Shown: in pieces, positions 23,737-44,320 of the stretch
Layout of the letters: each line of letters begins with the position of its first letter
How positions within the stretch are numbered: the first letter of the stretch is position 1
Virus record (IMG/VR): IMGVR_UViG_3300045988_152944
DNA: 64,000 nt
Origin: a virus
Reading direction: 5' to 3' (one strand)
Program-made: the position numbers and the translations under genes
The notes under the pieces: model-generated
What the model was told of the DNA's origin: nothing
Databases searched by the model: none
What the model saw: the letters and a program-made list of their open reading frames with translations, nothing else

Positions 23737-26700
23737 TTAAGAATGTCTAGTGAGATTACGCGCGGCTTGAAGTTGTCGCACAAAGTCATCCATATCAAAC
23801 CCAGGTTGAGCAACCATATGAACATCCAGATGTTCAACATTAAACGATTCGTCGGTTCCGAACCCTGTTGTGTGACTGAACTTGCCGTTGATGTCCACAA
23901 GTTGTTTAATCAGATTAGGAGCAACCTCGCCCAGTTGCCATACGTTGCGCGTAAGGTCGGCGGGAACAACTCCAGACTTCGACGGAAGAGCCGTCAAAGT
24001 ACCTTGAGGAGTAATGATGCCTTCAAGACCATATTGAGGATCGTCATTGACCAGAGAGAGGCCACCGGCGGTAGATAGAGTGCCTGTTGCGTGTGAAGAG
24101 AAGTCGTCTTGTGGGAGTTCACCTTCGCCTGCATATGTTTCATATATTGTCCCGTTAGCATCAATATAGTACACTTTTTTACTTCCAGAATCATAAATAA
24201 AACGATTGCGTCCGCCCTTAATGATGTCTGCGGCTTTATACCCCAGATCTATTTCCTTAGTTTCTAGTGGATCGAACCACAGGTTTTTAGCAGGAGAATA
24301 AAACAAATAAGAAGGACTAGTCGAGGAATAATCTTTAATAAGCGAAGAGTCCACCTTTTTATTTGTGATCACCACTTTTGAGAATTTCTGAGTCGCATTG
24401 GGATTTGCCCACCACCCATACCAACCCTTGCTGGTGGATGAAATTGCACTATTTAACGAATTCCAACTAGAAATAGCCCCAACGCCGCCCGAACTTTCAT
24501 TACTCTTTTCAAACAATTCTAGATACTCTGCCTTATCTTTATTAGACAGGTATTTATTGTTAAAGGCATCTTCAAAAGCGCTGCGATTTGTGTTAAACTG
24601 TTCAATTTCCACATTGTCCAAATTATCATATAGAGCCTTCTTGTTTGACGCCGCATCCTTGGTTCCTTTTGACTGTAACCATCCACCACCTTTGGTGTTG
24701 ATGAAATCGTCATACGCCGTTTTTAAGGCTTTTTTGGCCGCAGCCTTACGATAGCTATCTTCACTCTTATTCCATTCCTCCAGCTCTTCTTTTTGTTGTG
24801 CCTTATCGGCCGACGAAAACAAGGAAAATTGCTTGGGATCGTTTAACCGTTTGGTCCACAATTCTATCAGTTCAGTTGTGTCTGTGATATTACCCGACCA
24901 AGACTGCATAAACTTTTGAGCCTCTTCAAAGGATTTGTCGTCGACAATTTTGGTCATCCAATCTCGTTGACCTTGTAATTCATCAATCAAAGTTTGTAGT
25001 TTGTTGATTTGTTTTTCATTATCCAGTTCTTCGAGTTCTTTTTGCGCATCAGCGATTGCCGCCGTATCTGCCTCATAAACCCAACCAACACCCTCTCTCC
25101 AAACCTTCTTTTTTTCAGTTTGAGCATTTTCGAGTTTAATTTTAGCTTCAATAAGTTTATTTTCGTATTCTCGTTGCTTATTAATTTGCTCTAGGGCCGA
25201 TTTTTGTTCCTCTAATGCTGTCTGCTCTCTTTCCAAACGTTTATCAATATTGGATTGTATCGCAGCCAATACAGTATTATTCCAGCTTTCTTGAACCACC
25301 TGTCTTATATTTTCGGCTCCATTCAAATACGCCTCAACATATGCGTTTTTGTATTTATTTAATATATCGCCATAGGCGGTGATTTGTTCGTCTGAAAAGT
25401 CTTCAGAACTTAACGCCTGATACAAATCGTCTAAAGATGTATTATCCGCGCCAAACCCCATTTTTTCCATCATATCAACAAAACCCTGGCTTTCGTTAGA
25501 TACCATAGCTTTAAAAATCTGGGAACCCGAGGCGTTTCCGCCAGACCAGTCCTCAAATAGAGAACGGGTTTTATTTGCATAATACTCTTTTGTTTTATTA
25601 GCAATACTAAAGACTCCGGCTTCTGTTAATGCACCCGCCTCGTTACCATTTGCTTGAATAATTTGATATAATGAATCCAGCGACACTTTGCCAGTGGAAG
25701 CCATTTCTGAAAAATAATTTATCAATTTTTCACTTTGTTCTTGCAAATCTGAAAATGTGGAATTCAACTCACCAATTGTTAACGAACCAAATTTATCCAC
25801 ACTTTGTTTCACATCGTCCACCGAACGCCCAAGGGCATTAGCAGCCTGATCTAAGAGTTCATTAACCACATTCGTATCCAATTTATAAGTGTTGTTAACA
25901 ATATCAGATAAAGTGAATTGCCCGCCAGCTAAAAGGGATTGTATCGAGGTGGAGGTGTCTCGTTTCATCATTAGTTGAATTAATCTTCTTATTTCCGTCG
26001 TTAACGACAGTCCCGCCTTATCCGCCACTTGTTGTTCAACCCAAGAGATACCCTTGCGTGCTAATTCCATAGAACCCATTGAGGAAACACCGCTGCGTAA
26101 ATACGCTTCTTGCATCGTATAATTCAAGAGTTTTTTTCGCTCGTCTGCGGTCAATTGTTGTCCTTCTTTGGATTGTTCATAGGCGGCCTTTTGCGCTCGA
26201 ATATTGGCGATTTGCAACGCTTGTGCTAACTGTGTCCGGCTTTCGCTGGATTTGTTTTCATCTGCTAAGTAATCATCAATGTTTCTATAAAGCTCGTCTA
26301 ATGAGGCAGCGCCAAATGTTTCGCGTAATTTAACCCCATCTTCTGAAGACAAGTAACTCTTAAAAGTATCCTCAAGAACTTTGTTGTCTACCGATGCTGC
26401 TTTTATAGCTTCCACATTTTCACGAATAGCCTTCACATCATCCGAAAGTAACTTATCTTGCTTGGAAACTTCAACAACGTTTTGAAGCGCGGTTTCTTGA
26501 GCCTTTAAAGTTTCTAAGAGTTTAGACGCCTCTGCCACTCTTTTTTTACGGTTGATTTCTTCTTTGTCAAGCGCATTGGCAATAGGCTCAGCGGCAAAGC
26601 TCCCAATCGTGGAACCTATCATTGCTCCAATTGGCCCCCCAAGTGCTCCTCCAATGGCTGTTAAACCACCCGCAAAAGCACCAGCAACTACTTTAGCCTC

Positions 26701-28075
26701 TGTAGATCCTTCTGTACCAACGCCAGTTGTTATACCACTAAACAATCCCCCGAGTGCGGCTCCAGGAATATTAGATGGGACGGATTTGAAATATTTTTTT
26801 ACTTTCCCATCTTCTCCCGTCGTTTCTCCAGGAACTCCACCTGTTTTTTGCTGATTAGTATCTTGAGCAACTGCTTTGGCGTGTTTTTGAGTTTCTTTTG
26901 TATCTCGCGAAGTAGCATTTGTGTTTTTGTTTTCCTCTTTGGTTCCTTGCGCTTCGGCGGCGGCCCCTTGTGACGCACTCTCGGCAACTTGGTCTAGCGC
27001 AGAAGCTGTACCAGTTGCAGATTGAGCCAATTTGTTATTGGCCGCTGCTACAGCCTCTTCGGTCTTTTTCTTTTGTATATCTTCTAGTTTGGACGCCTTC
27101 CAATCTTGCTGATGTTGTGCAAATCTTGTGGGTCCTAATCCACTCACAAAACTCTTCCCCTTACCCACAGAGAAAAACTCTTTCATCCAAAGAGGAACTT
27201 TAAAAGCGTTGTATTGAATCAGAGCTGTCCCGACAGCTCGAATGGAGGGAAGAAGTATTTTCATTAAAACAACGGACAAATCGGTAAACAATTTAACGAG
27301 TCCCGACTGCTCCAAAGTCATAGCGAGGTTTTCCCAAGCTGATTGCAGTCTATTTGATGCGCTTTGAATGGTTTCCATATATGCGGCATACTTGCTTTCG
27401 GCCGTACCTTGTGAATGCGCCGAAACCTCTTCTAGTTCTTCCGCACGATCCATATTTTCCATCAACACAAGGAATTGCTCGCGTTGACGAACACCGGCCA
27501 TAGCTGTAGCAATCGCGTTTTTCGACACGTTGTCAAGATTAATCCACCTATCACTCAGTTCGTCAAGAACGTCGCTAAAACTTCTAAATTCTGTATTGGT
27601 CGATCGAATACTGATACCAATTTTACCCAATACTTTTTCTATATCGTTTAAATTCTCGAGATCGGTATCAGACGATGCCTCGAGATTCATTTTTGTATAA
27701 GCGCCCGCTTTTACGTTGCCGTAACGGGACATAATTGTACGCAAGGCCATACCCACACTCGACGCGTCGCGTTGGGTGGTTTCAATGATTGTTGAAGCAT
27801 AGGCTATCGTCTCGTCTAACGACACGCCCGCCAGTTGCGCTGTCGTGGCAACGTTTTGCAAAGCAGCACCAATATCTGCGGCGGACACCGCTGCTTTCAT
27901 GTCAACTGCTGTCAGTTTCGAAACCACATTAACGGCATCAGACACCTCTAATTTAAACCCTTTAATCATTGAGGTTAAATACTCAGTTGCCTGACCGGCG
28001 TCAATCATACCCAGTTTACTTAAATAAGTTGAGGCGGTAATAAGCTCTCCAGCTTGTTGTGCCTCGTAACCTTGT
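23737..28075 (-). CDS. tape measure protein, exon 2 (C-terminal ~1445 aa)
   Basis: The frame stays open upstream of the called Met (…QGYEAQQAGELITASTYLSKLGMIDAGQATEYL…) and continues the TP901-type TMP core that starts at the end of the upstream ORF. Confidence 0.8.
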
Positions 28076-28405
28076 CTATAATTGTGTTACTTTTGAACTT
28101 CGTTACGTTTCAAAAGATTAAGAGAATTTTTATGTCTCAAAATTTTCTTTTATTTTCATAAAAGTTCAGACTATATCTTTGGTAAATAAAAGTTTCCTTT
28201 TATTCCCATCCCCCGCTTCCATTCACTTGAATGTACATAATAGTCTTTGAACCTTCCCCTATTCGGGGCTTGGCTGCTGATTATCCAATTTATATAATTT
28301 TTTAACCATCACACTTAAGCCTATTTCATCTTTATGTTGTGGTTTATATAACTTTAGGAACTTCCAGCAATTCAAGGGATTTATAGTGACCTAGACTTTT
28401 AGTTA
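28076..28405 (-). ncRNA. group I self-splicing intron, ORF-less (~330 nt), interrupting the tape-measure gene
   Basis: Minus strand carries P AATTGCTGGAAG (28372-28361), Q AATCAGCAGCC (28282-28272), R GTTCAAAGACTA (28252-28241) and S AAGATATAGTCT (28179-28168). P7 AGACTA/TAGTCT and P4 TGCTG/CAGCA pair. P1 GTGGCTTA/TAGGTCAC has a U.G at the 5' splice site. The intron ends in G, and the predicted splice restores the frame. Confidence 0.85.
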
Positions 28406-32109
<3,704 letters not shown>

Positions 32110-33325: not shown

Positions 33326-34318
33326 TTACTCCTCTTCTTCTCCAACAAAAAATTGAGCCCAACGCTCTTCTGTCGGAATATCTGAATATCTCTTGACCAT
33401 TTCAAGAGAATCCCAAGATTGGATTTCAGCAATAGCCGAATCCGAAATACCTTCTTTTTGCATATTGGTTGTCCACAAATGTCTCATACAGTGGAAATAA
33501 AAAGGTACATTCATCAACGCACCAATCTTCTCAGCGTACGTATTCATTTGCGACACCGTTGCTTGAACAAATTTGCCATCACTGGTAGTAACAAACAGCC
33601 ATGGCGATTCTATTCCGCGTTCCTCGCGCTGTTTCATCCAAGCATCAAAATAGGGTTGAAATTTATTTTTTAATACATATTTAGGGATCTGTTTGCCGTT
33701 TGAGCCGCGTCCTTTTGTCTTAATAACACCCGTTTTATACATTTTACCATTAAGAATTAAATGTGCGTCATCAAAAAACTCAACCTTCATCCTGGTCAAT
33801 TCGGCCTTTCTCATTCCCGACGCAAAACTTAATGCGAGTGCGCAGGCTATTTGACACTGACCTTGTGTCAAGAGTTTGTCCAAACACTCTTCGACTTGTT
33901 CGTCAGTCAACACCGTTTTTTCACGTACTGGTTCTTTGTGCACCGGTTCAAGACTTTTGATCAAGTTCCTAAAGTTTGGATATAAATCTTCGTCCAAAAC
34001 CTCAATACAGTTCGACAGACTGCTAATGGCAGACTTTAAAGAAGCCACCCTATTGGAGCTCAAGCCGAGTCCGCGCAAATAACCAATGTATCTCACAAAA
34101 TCTCGCTTTTTGAGATCGATGAAAAACTTGTCTTCATTCTCGGTGTAATTCCAACAGAAGAAAACTTTCAACTGAGCCTCATACTGCTTGATGGTTTGCG
34201 CACTGCGGTCATTCGCTTTGCAATAGTCTATAAACTCTTTAACTAATTGTCTGTTTGGCTTACTGACTGAAGGCCAAGCTTGAGTGAGATTTGCGTTGTA
34301 AACTGTTGTTCGTCCCAT
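33326..34318 (-). CDS. tyrosine site-specific recombinase (phage integrase / Xer-like)
   Basis: N-terminal SAM-like core-binding region. Catalytic signature ASGMRKAEL (R), HCMRHLW (HxxR), SWDS, MVKRYSD (Tyr). Confidence 0.8.
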   Translation of the reverse strand: MGRTTVYNANLTQAWPSVSKPNRQLVKEFIDYCKANDRSAQTIKQYEAQLKVFFCWNYTENEDKFFIDLKKRDFVRYIGYLRGLGLSSNRVASLKSAISSLSNCIEVLDEDLYPNFRNLIKSLEPVHKEPVREKTVLTDEQVEECLDKLLTQGQCQIACALALSFASGMRKAELTRMKVEFFDDAHLILNGKMYKTGVIKTKGRGSNGKQIPKYVLKNKFQPYFDAWMKQREERGIESPWLFVTTSDGKFVQATVSQMNTYAEKIGALMNVPFYFHCMRHLWTTNMQKEGISDSAIAEIQSWDSLEMVKRYSDIPTEERWAQFFVGEEEE

Positions 34319-41511: not shown

Positions 41512-42777
41512 TTATGCTACGGTGAAATGCCACTTGTTCGCTTTGTCGCAAGCTGCAGCATTATCTTTGTAATATACGTTATACGACTTAGCCTCATAGC
41601 CATTCGCACCTTCTACATCCACAGTAATGTGGGTAAATGCGCTGAATGCTTCTGCGTTCAGTCCGTTAACGTCTTTGATTGAATTGATAGTTCTCGGTGC
41701 AGGGACAGCTATGATAACACGCATGTCACCAACAGCCTCTTGAGCATCGCCCGTATTGCCCGCTGAGATTGCTCCATTTCTCTTACCAGCCAAACCTCTG
41801 ATAATCGCACTCGTGGGCGTGCCTTCTTTAGATTTGACACCACCCCAGAAACTGTTTCTATAACCAGTAATAGCACTCGAAGCAGCGCTCTTTGTGCCAG
41901 CCGCAATTTTACCAGCTACGCCCTCAGTCGCACCAAGGTTGTTTTTAGGATCGGCACCGGCCGTGTGTGTAGCAACAACACTGACCTTATAACTGGTACT
42001 GTCACCAACTGTAAACTGAGCAAACGAACCCGTTTCTGTAGTAGCCGTATGCGAATCTGTATCGCTGACCTCATAGGTCGCTGTAATACCCGTGTCTGGA
42101 CCATATTGATAGCTACCTTTGTTAAAAGCCACTGAGTACGCAGGAGTGAATTCGCTACCAACCTCCTTTGCGCCGGCACCGGTTAAACTAATAGACACTG
42201 ACGGTTGGTTTACTGTAGGATTATTGTTAGCTTTTGCGAGCGCTCCTTTTAAGAATTCTTCTACAGACTTACCACTTGCGGGCAGCACAACCGAACCGGA
42301 TGCACCAGGAGCATAAATACCAAACGCTGTGGTTGCTGTGATATCATCTTTAAAATATACATTGCCTGCGTCGTAATTGCCATCCATGGCTTCCCAGTTG
42401 GTCTCGCCGCGTACATATGCAGTATACTGATATTTGCCACCAACCAACGCTTCCCTGATGATCGCAATGTCACCTTTAACAGGCTCTGCAATTTCAGCAA
42501 GCGCTGCCGCTTTGTCACCACCCAACGCGATGTCTTTCTGATAAACATCGGTAGTATGCAAATTTTTGGTAGCATCACCGATTGCTTTTTCGACGGCTGC
42601 CAAATCTACAAATGAAACGGTAATTTCGCTCCAAGTTTTGGTGCCATCGCCAACTTTGAAAATGTGTAAATCGGTATCATAACCAACTTCACCTTTCTTC
42701 AAAACAAGCTTGGAAGCAGCCCAATTGGTGCTGGTGTCATTACGTAAAATTAAAGTAATACGTATTTGTTTCTCCAT
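41512..42777 (-). CDS. fibre-like protein, paralog E (421 aa) with the shared N-terminal domain
   Basis: MEKQIRITLILRNDTSTNWAASKLVLKKGEVGYDTDLHIFKVGDGTKTWSEI. Confidence 0.75.
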   Translation of the reverse strand: MEKQIRITLILRNDTSTNWAASKLVLKKGEVGYDTDLHIFKVGDGTKTWSEITVSFVDLAAVEKAIGDATKNLHTTDVYQKDIALGGDKAAALAEIAEPVKGDIAIIREALVGGKYQYTAYVRGETNWEAMDGNYDAGNVYFKDDITATTAFGIYAPGASGSVVLPASGKSVEEFLKGALAKANNNPTVNQPSVSISLTGAGAKEVGSEFTPAYSVAFNKGSYQYGPDTGITATYEVSDTDSHTATTETGSFAQFTVGDSTSYKVSVVATHTAGADPKNNLGATEGVAGKIAAGTKSAASSAITGYRNSFWGGVKSKEGTPTSAIIRGLAGKRNGAISAGNTGDAQEAVGDMRVIIAVPAPRTINSIKDVNGLNAEAFSAFTHITVDVEGANGYEAKSYNVYYKDNAAACDKANKWHFTVA

Positions 42778-44054
42778 AAAATTTTCGGCAAAGGCCCCGC
42801 ATCCCCTTCAGGGGTGTGGGGGAATTGCCTCCTCCTTTCTATTAGTTTTGTTGAATTGTGTCTAATCCTTTTAAGGTTCTTATAACTTATTGAACCATTG
42901 TTTACCTTTTCTCCGTCTAAATTTCTGATATCTAAAAATCCTGATTTGCGTCTACCAAAAATCACATATTGTTTATTTTGATATTCTACCGTATCAAATA
43001 AGTCAAACCCAAAAACGTTGCCAATTAGTTGATTATTCTTTTTATATCCACCCTTTGAAAAATTATTTTTATGGATTTGTCTACTCTGCCTTCTAACACA
43101 CTTTTGATAAATATAATAATCTAAAGACTTCGCCTTTGGATTACCACTTATACACCGAGCATCTATGTAGTGTGCTTTCGGCAGATTATTTTCAATACGA
43201 GTGTTTTTAGTTATATAGCCATATGTTTCGTGGACATTTGAATATAACGCACATAATCTGTCAAATAGCGTCTTACACATAATCCCCATAAACGCAGCAT
43301 CTCGATAACTTTTACCACGTTTGAACTTTAATTCAACTTCGCCCTTGTGATAAGCTTTATGACAAGTTTCGCACAAGGTAATTAAATTATTCGGTGCATT
43401 GCCACCTGCTTTACGACTTTCAATATGATGTACATTTAATACATTATCTTTTGATTTACCGTGGCAACATTGGCATTCGTGGTGATCGCGGAATAATACA
43501 TAGGCTCTCACATTCCAGAAACCTAATTGCTCGCCCTGTTGATATTCTTTTCCCGATATTTCGGGATTGTTTATCTTCTGGATATCGAATTGAGCGGTTT
43601 CGACAATAAGTTTAGTTATCGGTAAAATCGCATACAAGCGTTTTATAACTTGAATATGCGAATTTATCTTTTGTTCAACACTTGGAGCAAGCCATCCTTT
43701 GTGTTTTGAATAAACACGATTGTTAAATCTTGCAGGGCGATATCTCAACCGGTTTCTTCTCGTTCTTCTTGCTTCTCTACGAGATGATAGTTTATTTACA
43801 ATATCATTACGCAATTCGACATCAGCTTCATATAGCACTTGTTTGTCCGTTGTGGCAGAAACACCAATATGCTTACTTCCGACATCAATTCCAAGATTCA
43901 CTTCTTGTGTTTGATTTTCACAATCGAATAATAACTGAATTGTAAACGGTTCGTATTTTACTATTTTTGCTTTATTTTGTTTTAGCAATTTTCTTGCTTT
44001 TGCTTCTTTGCAAGGCATTAATGGTTTGCCTTGTTTGTTTAATACATATACCAT
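42750..44054 (-). CDS. iscB: IscB RNA-guided nuclease (OMEGA family, Cas9 ancestor-like), 434 aa
   Basis: PLMP motif (GKPLMPC), RuvC-I GIDVGSKHIG, Arg-rich bridge helix RREARRTRRNRLRYRPARF, RuvC-II IVETAQFD, HNH HHIESRKAGGNAPNNLITLCETCH, RuvC-III HYIDARC. Confidence 0.9.
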   Translation of the reverse strand: MVYVLNKQGKPLMPCKEAKARKLLKQNKAKIVKYEPFTIQLLFDCENQTQEVNLGIDVGSKHIGVSATTDKQVLYEADVELRNDIVNKLSSRREARRTRRNRLRYRPARFNNRVYSKHKGWLAPSVEQKINSHIQVIKRLYAILPITKLIVETAQFDIQKINNPEISGKEYQQGEQLGFWNVRAYVLFRDHHECQCCHGKSKDNVLNVHHIESRKAGGNAPNNLITLCETCHKAYHKGEVELKFKRGKSYRDAAFMGIMCKTLFDRLCALYSNVHETYGYITKNTRIENNLPKAHYIDARCISGNPKAKSLDYYIYQKCVRRQSRQIHKNNFSKGGYKKNNQLIGNVFGFDLFDTVEYQNKQYVIFGRRKSGFLDIRNLDGEKVNNGSISYKNLKRIRHNSTKLIERRRQFPHTPEGDAGPLPKILWRNKYVLL

Positions 44055-44320
44055 TGCTTTTATAGCCTCCTATATGTTAGAGTGGTTACTCCACGACAAT
44101 GTTATTCAAAGGTTTTACGTATGCAACACTGTTCCTACCCATCAGAACTGTTTAATCACATACCGCAGAGCGTAAGACTGGAGAGTACATCCTACAGTGC
44201 CTATATATTCTTTGATAACGTAGTGCTCGAAGCACTGAGTCTGATCAACTAGTGAGCTTGAAGCCCACGCCTATTTATGGGCTGGGTAGTTGACAAAAAC
44301 TCCTTTTGAAAATAAATTCG
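44055..44320 (-). ncRNA. putative IscB omega-RNA (guide plus scaffold)
   Basis: A 266-nt ORF-free gap immediately 5' of iscB, where IscB omega-RNAs are encoded. Stems include GTGGGCT/AGCTCAC (44252-44268) and AGTGCT/AGCACT (44222-44236). Confidence 0.65.

Follow-up and report, generated by a model that had tools for sequence, protein, structure and literature searches.

In the window, a stretch of 64,000 nucleotides of viral DNA, the gene for the phage tape-measure protein (TMP) is almost certainly split by a group I intron on the minus strand. The explanation that we favour, and consider probable, is that this is a natural omega-A group I intron in the TMP gene of an uncultured human-gut phage, which would join its exons at 28079|28078. 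An earlier sequence-only reading of the same DNA had ended the intron at G28076. The two exons lie as follows.

28406..32109, minus strand: TMP exon 1, with the ATG at 32109 and the last base, U28406, in the Leu codon CU|N (the ORF runs 28399..32109)
23737..28078, minus strand: TMP exon 2, starting at U28078 (favoured) or at A28075 (sequence-only reading), with the stop codon at 23739-23737

The two large ORFs had been described as two halves of a single TP901-type TMP core, and the profile searches bore this out. Once joined, the ORFs contain a single PF10145 and a single TIGR01760 (tape_meas_TP901) domain, each continuous over the junction, and TIGR01760/PF10145 cover the end of exon 1 only if exon 2 is attached to it. 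The homologs are not pairs of separate proteins that end and start at these positions: in tblastn, uninterrupted TMPs of Bacillus, Lactococcus, Enterococcus and Enterocloster phages align through the junction. Conservation among homologs reaches AGA (28077-28075), which lies 23 codons upstream of the first ATG (28008) of the downstream ORF. Since the domain spans the junction and the conservation continues up to the gap, the two ORFs are two exons of one gene rather than two genes, and together they make up a predicted TMP gene of ~2,681 codons, whose full-length product would have ~290 kDa. For annotation, the value is that the two large ORFs can be entered as one TMP gene of ~2,681 aa; gene callers split the TMP in all related contigs. 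Next to it, on the same strand, lie structural genes of the phage, with matches to a tail protein and a Hoc-like decoration protein.

Two further observations concern the gene and its surroundings. The N-terminal half of the TMP has no family match and includes a (GS)n linker, SGSGSGSGSGSGSGSG, at residues ~1000-1015 (window 29000-29100 region, exon 1). An integrase-like (tyrosine) ORF at 33326-34318 (minus strand; phrog_1, 1.8e-31) is located in the structural module, ~1.2 kb upstream of the TMP start, where it overlaps neighbouring ORF calls.

The gap between the exons contains a well-defined group I core. The proposed check against the Rfam model RF00028 gave 85.9 bits for the minus strand of the window, well above the gathering score of 50 (E = 1.8e-20; match span 28439..28147). 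This span is unfit for setting intron boundaries, because the P1 of the model put 34 nt into exon 1 and its end fell at P9. The intron had also been called ORF-less, and no ORF of at least 40 aa was found in the gap, so that a peripheral-loop endonuclease gene is absent from the window copy. Folding of the 327-nt sequence gave a z-score of -3.3 and recovered P3, P4, P5, P6, P8 and the 3' hairpins. The elements of the intron are listed below.

28079..28405, minus strand: group I intron with the favoured boundaries, 327 nt, UAAC...CACAAUUA; matched by RF00028, and its excision restores the intron-less GAGTGGCTTAGACAAGG
28076-28405, minus strand: group I intron with the boundaries of the sequence-only reading, 330 nt
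28406..28412, minus strand: P1 exon strand AGUGGCU, in which U28406 is the 5' splice-site U; 7 bp with 28385-28391
28385..28391, minus strand: internal guide sequence GGUCACU (P1 intron strand); an identical guide occurs in cyanophage psbA introns
28374..28380, minus strand: P3 5' strand AUCCCUU, pairing with GGGGGAU at 28214-28208 (Rfam alignment and minimum-free-energy fold)
28361..28372, minus strand: P element AATTGCTGGAAG with the P4 5' strand; UGCUGG pairs with UCAGCA in Q (6 bp, 13/13 alleles)
28272-28282, minus strand: Q element AATCAGCAGCC
28252..28273, minus strand: P6/P6a hairpin CCAAGCCCCGAAUAGGGGAAGG, with two compensatory pairs from C-G to U-A among alleles
28241..28252, minus strand: R element GTTCAAAGACTA, P7 5' strand A[A]GACUA with the G of the guanosine-binding pair
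28168..28179, minus strand: S element AAGATATAGTCT, P7 3' strand UAGUCU
28181..28207, minus strand: P8 hairpin (Rfam alignment; minimum-free-energy fold)
28147..28164, minus strand: P9 hairpin CUUUUAUGAAAAUAAAAG (Rfam alignment)
28122..28138, minus strand: P9.1 hairpin GAGACAUAAAAAUUCUC, the site of the homing-endonuclease ORF in relatives
28090..28116, minus strand: P9.2 hairpin; a different complementary stem is present in L005, L020, L063 and L106

The elements P, Q, R and S, with pairing of P4 and P7, were all found on the minus strand where the sequence-only reading had placed them. The same is true of its P1 hairpin and of its 5' splice site after U28406: the 7 bp between AGUGGCU and GGUCACU, including U28406.G28391, are paired in 13/13 alleles. 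These counts come from a MAFFT alignment of 13 distinct alleles, in which P4, P6 and P7 are all 100% paired, P7 with one compensatory pair, and the guanosine-binding pair in P7 is G-C in every allele (alignment columns 173-250). We left P3, P5, P8 and P9 out of the counts, because MAFFT shifts subfamilies by one column there. Between P7 and P3', where subgroup IA2 introns carry P7.1/P7.2, there is one hairpin (28233-28220). For P9.0, the J7/9 segment GAAC showed no conserved partner ahead of either candidate 3' site. Introns of Staphylococcus, Bacillus, Lactococcus and Streptococcus phages share 70-80% identity with the core, and in the favoured explanation the intron would probably be a self-splicing one of the phage IA type.

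The conservation of this core also bears on the idea that the intron is a dead relic, with the two ORFs made as separate polypeptides or the TMP reduced to a pseudogene. The ORF of exon 1 does stop two codons inside the intron, and the downstream ORF (23737..28008) has an ATG of its own at 28008. But the split lies within a single conserved domain, protein conservation runs past this ATG to the junction, and ~17 alleles in three subfamilies have kept the ribozyme core, with P6, P7 and P10 showing compensatory changes. We therefore regard a relic as very improbable.

The position of the 3' splice site was approached by comparison with alleles in which the intron is absent. Around the intron the window reads GAGTGGCT|TAAC...CACAATTA|TAG|ACAAGG. 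In the intron-less alleles the sequence is GAGTGGCT^TAGACAAGG, and excising 28405..28079 is the only way to restore it. Excision of exactly this segment gives GAGTGGCTTAGACAAGG, as found in L010, L013-L015 and L008. Because of the repeated U and A, the excised segment could be shifted by one or two bases; only the 28405..28079 register preserves the invariant U.G at the 5' site, and no register ends the intron in G. The closest intron-less allele, L010 (88% aa identity), has GCGGCGAACGAGTGGCTTAGACAAGGTTATGAA, encoding ANEWLRQGYE, and the other intron-less alleles (L008, L009 and L011-L015) all encode W-x-R-Q-G-Y. The join 28406|28075 of the sequence-only reading produces GAGTGGCT-ACAAGG and EWL-QGY, so that three bases of the intron-less allele are lacking.

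The second line of evidence is the P10 pairing between the guide region and the start of exon 2, for which the relevant positions are these.

28392..28396, minus strand: P10 intron strand GUCUA, directly 5' of the guide G, pairing with UAGAC at 28078-28074
28074..28078, minus strand: P10 exon-2 strand UAGAC, covering the last base of the Leu codon, all of the Arg codon AGA and the initial Gln base
28079..28079, minus strand: omega position as placed by P10 and homology, A and not G
28076..28076, minus strand: alternative canonical terminal G (sequence-only reading), the second base of the Arg codon AGA; it pairs with C28394 in P10

GUCUA is complementary to UAGAC, and therefore the guide region pairs without a break along AGUGGCU^UAGAC, the joined-exon sequence seen in the intron-less allele. 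All five P10 pairs are formed in 13/13 alleles, and the pair adjoining P1 changes from A-U (nine alleles) to G-C (four alleles). In the L063/L065/L110 subfamily P10 is extended to 6-7 bp, as in L065, where UUGUCUG pairs with CAGACAA over 7 bp. When the 3' partners were slid by +3, the contiguous register for a terminal G28076, only 28.6% were paired. Position 28079 is A in all ~17 distinct alleles, and the bases just upstream of it vary (AAUUA, AAAUA, CAAGA). A second TMP intron, present in L016-L018, has the canonical terminal G at the corresponding place, reading GUAACAAAUUG|UAGAAC where the tail of the window intron reads GUAACACAAUUA|UAGACA. From the homology and the P10 register, the terminal position would thus be A28079, and the 3' splice site lies probably between A28079 and U28078, giving ...ANEWLRQGYEAQQ....

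The main rival is canonical splicing with U28406 and G28076, as the sequence-only reading proposed, because it alone obeys the terminal-G rule. It would remove a 330-nt intron and give a TMP with ...ANEWL-QGYEAQQ..., one residue shorter than all homologs. Its history would be that an ancestral terminal G (now A28079) mutated, the ribozyme moved to the next in-frame G, and homing spread the altered allele. We consider this possible but doubtful. Nearly all group I introns end in G, and counting against the omega-A explanation is the in-frame G28076 only 3 nt downstream, the sole site that satisfies both the U(-1) and the terminal-G rules. In a hand enumeration of nearby U(-1)/G(terminal) pairs, only U28406/G28076 was in frame, free of stops and compatible with the invariant W, G and Y. 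Furthermore, G28076 is invariant in all alleles. The guanosine-binding pair is the canonical G-C in 13/13, so the core shows no visible adaptation to A, and this invariant pair also speaks for canonical splicing. The product of the canonical join still passes both TMP profiles, with 86.2 bits (TIGR01760) and 96.2 bits (PF10145). The only variable exon-side position, 28075 (A, or G in L016), is synonymous under both readings. Finally, the first P10 pair has a single independent covariation event behind it, which also counts against omega-A, as does the lack of a clear P9.0. A further join, 28403|28075, was tried and rejected: it yields EWLKQGY, but with A at -1 and no P1.

The protein evidence points to A28079. 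In the fetched loci, uninterrupted homologs carry W-x-R-[QA]-G-Y in 48/48 cases down to ~40% identity, with the Arg and the W-to-G spacing invariant, and it is this Arg that a join to A28075 would lose. When the Arg is restored, the TIGR01760 score rises from 86.2 to 95.1 bits and that of PF10145 from 96.2 to 104.1 bits, so canonical splicing stands 8-9 bits down on the curated profiles. We searched IMG/VR for Arg-less TMP alleles (GARTGGCTRCAAGGNTAYGA, EWLQGY) and found none, as 28/28 matches were in unrelated genes, such as a primase with LEWLQGYE; the EWLRQGY pattern had matches in five contigs. As a control, seven other TMP intron junctions could be rebuilt from a canonical U/G pair at zero cost, while at the insertion site of the window restoration with a canonical U/G pair costs 16 BLOSUM units in every allele. 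This control was clean for the seven junctions; the low-identity and long-insert cases were noisy and are not interpreted.

The RNA evidence weighs on the same side. With G28076 as the last intron base, this G would sit inside a conserved, covarying helix of 5-7 bp, and the three guide-side bases between P1 and the exon-2 pairing (28392-28394) would pair only with the last 3 bases of the intron itself. Related introns have their terminal G three bases upstream, and an invariant residue would have been removed in every lineage that the intron invaded. Accordingly, parts of the sequence-only reading stand and parts probably need correction. There is a G at 28076, but as the intron end it is probably 3 nt off, judging by the intron-less alleles, P10 and the related introns. 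The splice 28406|28075 is in frame, but its peptide, ANEWLQGYEAQQ, is probably off by one residue. The alignment to uninterrupted TMPs that it proposed confirms continuity through the junction, but the peptide that it predicted lacks the invariant Arg.

It is also conceivable, and in our judgement improbable, that both 3' sites are used. Here a slow omega-A reaction would compete with the nearby G, and two TMP isoforms, with and without the Arg, would be made. Each junction is in frame, and such a scheme draws alike on the evidence for A28079 and for G28076. But the P10 that favours A28079 sequesters G28076.

Returning to the omega-A explanation, we infer both that the intron splices and that ligation takes place at 28079|28078 rather than at G28076. 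An exogenous guanosine would attack after U28406, which is held in the 7-bp P1 by the guide GGUCACU. The start of exon 2, UAGAC, would then pair with GUCUA beside the guide to form P10, which would align U28078 next to U28406. Exon 1 would be ligated to U28078 after A28079, producing ...GAG UGG CUU AGA CAA GGU... and the peptide ANEWLRQGY. The 3' splice site would thus be set mainly by the unusually long P10, and, as the last intron nucleotide in this register is A28079 and not G, the intron would be a natural omega-A intron. Since each virion needs no more than a few TMP molecules, the phage could put up with a slow second step. The two junctions make different predictions: the omega-A explanation predicts the cDNA junction GAGUGGCUUAGACAAGG, that is GAGUGGCU-UAGACAAGG, and the TMP peptide NEWLRQGYEAQQAGELITASTYLSK, and canonical splicing predicts the cDNA ...GAGUGGCU|ACAAGG... 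and the peptide NEWLQGYEAQQ.

The intron belongs to a family of related elements. The protein search returned uninterrupted homologs at 44-70% identity, as well as many gene calls, at 84-99% identity, that break off or begin at the junction; the protein database yielded no junction-spanning, spliced-transcript-derived protein at 90% identity or more. In the contigs of such broken gene calls the site is occupied by the same intron, which scores 77-85 bits with RF00028 in four relatives. Taking together the protein search, IMG/VR, a metagenome collection and a MAG contig, we obtained ~17 distinct intron-bearing alleles; the sequence-pattern search of metagenomes gave 10 loci. The contigs of the relatives come from human and pig gut metagenomes, and one allele is on a contig binned with a Lachnospiraceae MAG. 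A near-identity search of cultured phages (INPHARED) with the intron and its flanks gave a single match, to 70 nt of the core; the phage itself is absent from that collection.

Some alleles are ORF-less like that of the window (L006, L007, L016, L017, L024 and L103), and others contain inserts of 0.85-1.7 kb (L004, L005, L018, L020, L063, L106, L110 and L111). L004 is collinear with the window except that its P9.1 loop, between 28136 and 28124, holds an extra 852 nt with a 282-aa ORF; L005 has a 538-aa ORF at the same place. Both of these ORFs match homing-endonuclease families of PHROG (4e-42 and 3e-100, respectively) and DUF7487, and the matches of the tested ORFs (L004 and L005) also include DUF559. 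In the favoured explanation the window intron is probably an ORF-less copy of a mobile intron, which in sister phages has an endonuclease gene within its P9.1 loop. Host TMPs that are only 43-56% identical to that of the window contain a diverged subfamily (L063, L065, L110 and L111). Its members fall just below the Rfam cut-off (47.2 bits for L065; no match for L110), so they are missed by threshold-based scans. In this subfamily P7 has A-U in place of C-G (GAAUA with UAUUC).

For the family as a whole, we lean only slightly towards the view that omega-A introns are widespread in human-gut phage TMPs, with the 3' site fixed by the long P10 and not by a terminal G and P9.0, and that this arrangement has been kept through at least three subfamilies and repeated homing into TMPs with no more than 43-49% identity.

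The TMP core of this phage clade is itself an insertion hotspot (loci L016-L078, IMG/VR). Interruptions of 0.3-2.1 kb occur after query residues ~85, ~120, ~140-150, ~160, ~170, ~197, ~230 and ~280, and RF00028 confirms introns in L016, L068 and L078. Two interruptions in one TMP core are present in L016-L018 and apparently also in L006. The second TMP intron is 301 nt long (about 3927-4227 in L016, and also in L017 and L018) and is inserted at ...GMAL|RTIM..., a site that is intron-less in the window. The exon bases around it are synonymously recoded, CTT AGA ACT ATC against TTG CGT ACA ATT in the window.

If ligation after A28079 is true, natural gut-phage ribozymes would carry out the second step without the conserved terminal G. 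The family would then offer a large, diversified natural set for studying the tolerance of A in the guanosine site and the takeover of 3'-site definition by P10. If G28076 is used instead, a selfish intron would have made its host protein lose a residue that is invariant elsewhere, and carrying the intron would have a concrete cost.

Elsewhere in the window we noted a HEARO RNA at 44082-44294 (minus strand; RF02033, 133.4 bits versus a cut-off of 83). It is directly upstream of a 434-aa HNH-endonuclease ORF at 42750-44054 (minus strand; phrog_119, 2e-63), and by these matches the two are a predicted phage-carried IscB/omega-RNA-like pair.

Among known systems, the nearest by host gene are the group I introns (IA1/IA2) at three TMP sites in B. 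cereus-group prophages, TMP-IVS1, TMP-IVS2 and TMP-IVS3 (Tourasse & Kolsto 2008, PMC2504315). These are likewise IA-type introns that occur in the TMP at several sites and target the most conserved parts of the gene; many have no complete endonuclease gene, and their P1 and P10 are fitted to the insertion site. They differ in their hosts and in the site, which in the window is EWL|RQGY of the TP901 core, and there is no detectable near-identity. The comparison took in hosts, sites and sequence identity; the window has an A at its P10-set position. As the B. cereus-group introns were described in 2008, a group I intron in a TMP is a known kind and by itself ordinary; the predicted terminal A is the candidate novelty. 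The introns of phage Moonbeam were rejected as a TMP parallel, since they sit in terminase and polymerase genes and not in the TMP.

Two cultured phages show a similar arrangement, with the TMP annotated in two pieces and a group I core in the gap, at other insertion sites and with no intron annotated in either record. The record of Geobacillus virus E3 (KP144388) gives the N- and C-terminal parts of the TMP a CDS each, and the 310-nt gap between gp42 and gp43 (L001 3475-3784) scores 48.7 bits with RF00028 against the cut-off of 50 (E = 1.9e-11). Very probably this gap is an intron missing from the annotation; it lies ~60 codons downstream of the site in the window. In Streptococcus phage Str-PAP-1 (NC_028666, L146, 17818-19741), gp23 and gp20 are ~1.9 kb apart, and the interval contains a core 80% identical to that of the window over 143 nt together with two endonuclease ORFs. 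It may represent two introns or a twintron, and the TMP is split there at …NSNKMG | …LKLGYGG…, which is not the site of the window. Multiple introns in one gene are also known from orf142 of Staphylococcus phage Twort, which has three group I introns (Landthaler & Shub 1999, as cited in PMC10136302). This is a phage gene of the structural region with multiple IA2 introns; sister phages of the window (L016-L018 and apparently L006) have two introns in the same TMP core. The host gene is another one, and the window itself has one intron only.

An identical guide is found in cyanophage psbA introns (L090, L093-L098); the psbA intron of S-PM2 is mentioned in PMC3706429. These introns share the P1 exon strand and the guide of the window intron exactly (GAGUGGCU with GGUCACU), and E-W-L is encoded at the insertion site in either host gene (DEWL|YNGG in psbA). 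The P3-P7 core is similar, and P10 (CUAU with AUAG) has the contiguous register of the window, starting from the base beside the guide G. In contrast to the window intron, they have a canonical terminal G, ...GAUUG|CUAUAAUGG (...GAUUG|CUAU), and ahead of this G a 4-bp P9.0 that covaries from AAUC/GAUU to AGUC/GACU. They also have no P9.1/P9.2 extension and occupy another host gene in another environment. The shared P1 and guide suggest movement between unrelated genes that both encode E-W-L. One cyanophage contig, L090, gave three RF00028 matches.

For the terminal A, the only omega-A precedent to our knowledge is the Coxiella 23S rRNA intron Cbu.L1917. With the family in the window there would be two natural cases, this one being the first from a phage gene that encodes a protein. 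The terminal base of Cbu.L1917 is reportedly A, and a follow-up in 2009 is said to have found that it uses G for step 1 and its terminal A for step 2, with slow splicing. A natural group I intron without a terminal G in Coxiella burnetii is on record (Raghavan et al. 2007, J Bacteriol 189:6572; cited in PMC3428280). Cbu.L1917 belongs to another subgroup and is located in a bacterial rRNA gene, and it was tested experimentally, whereas the case in the window is made by sequence comparison. The window also has an in-frame G 3 nt downstream as a possible alternative site. What the two introns would share is a 3'-terminal A instead of G.
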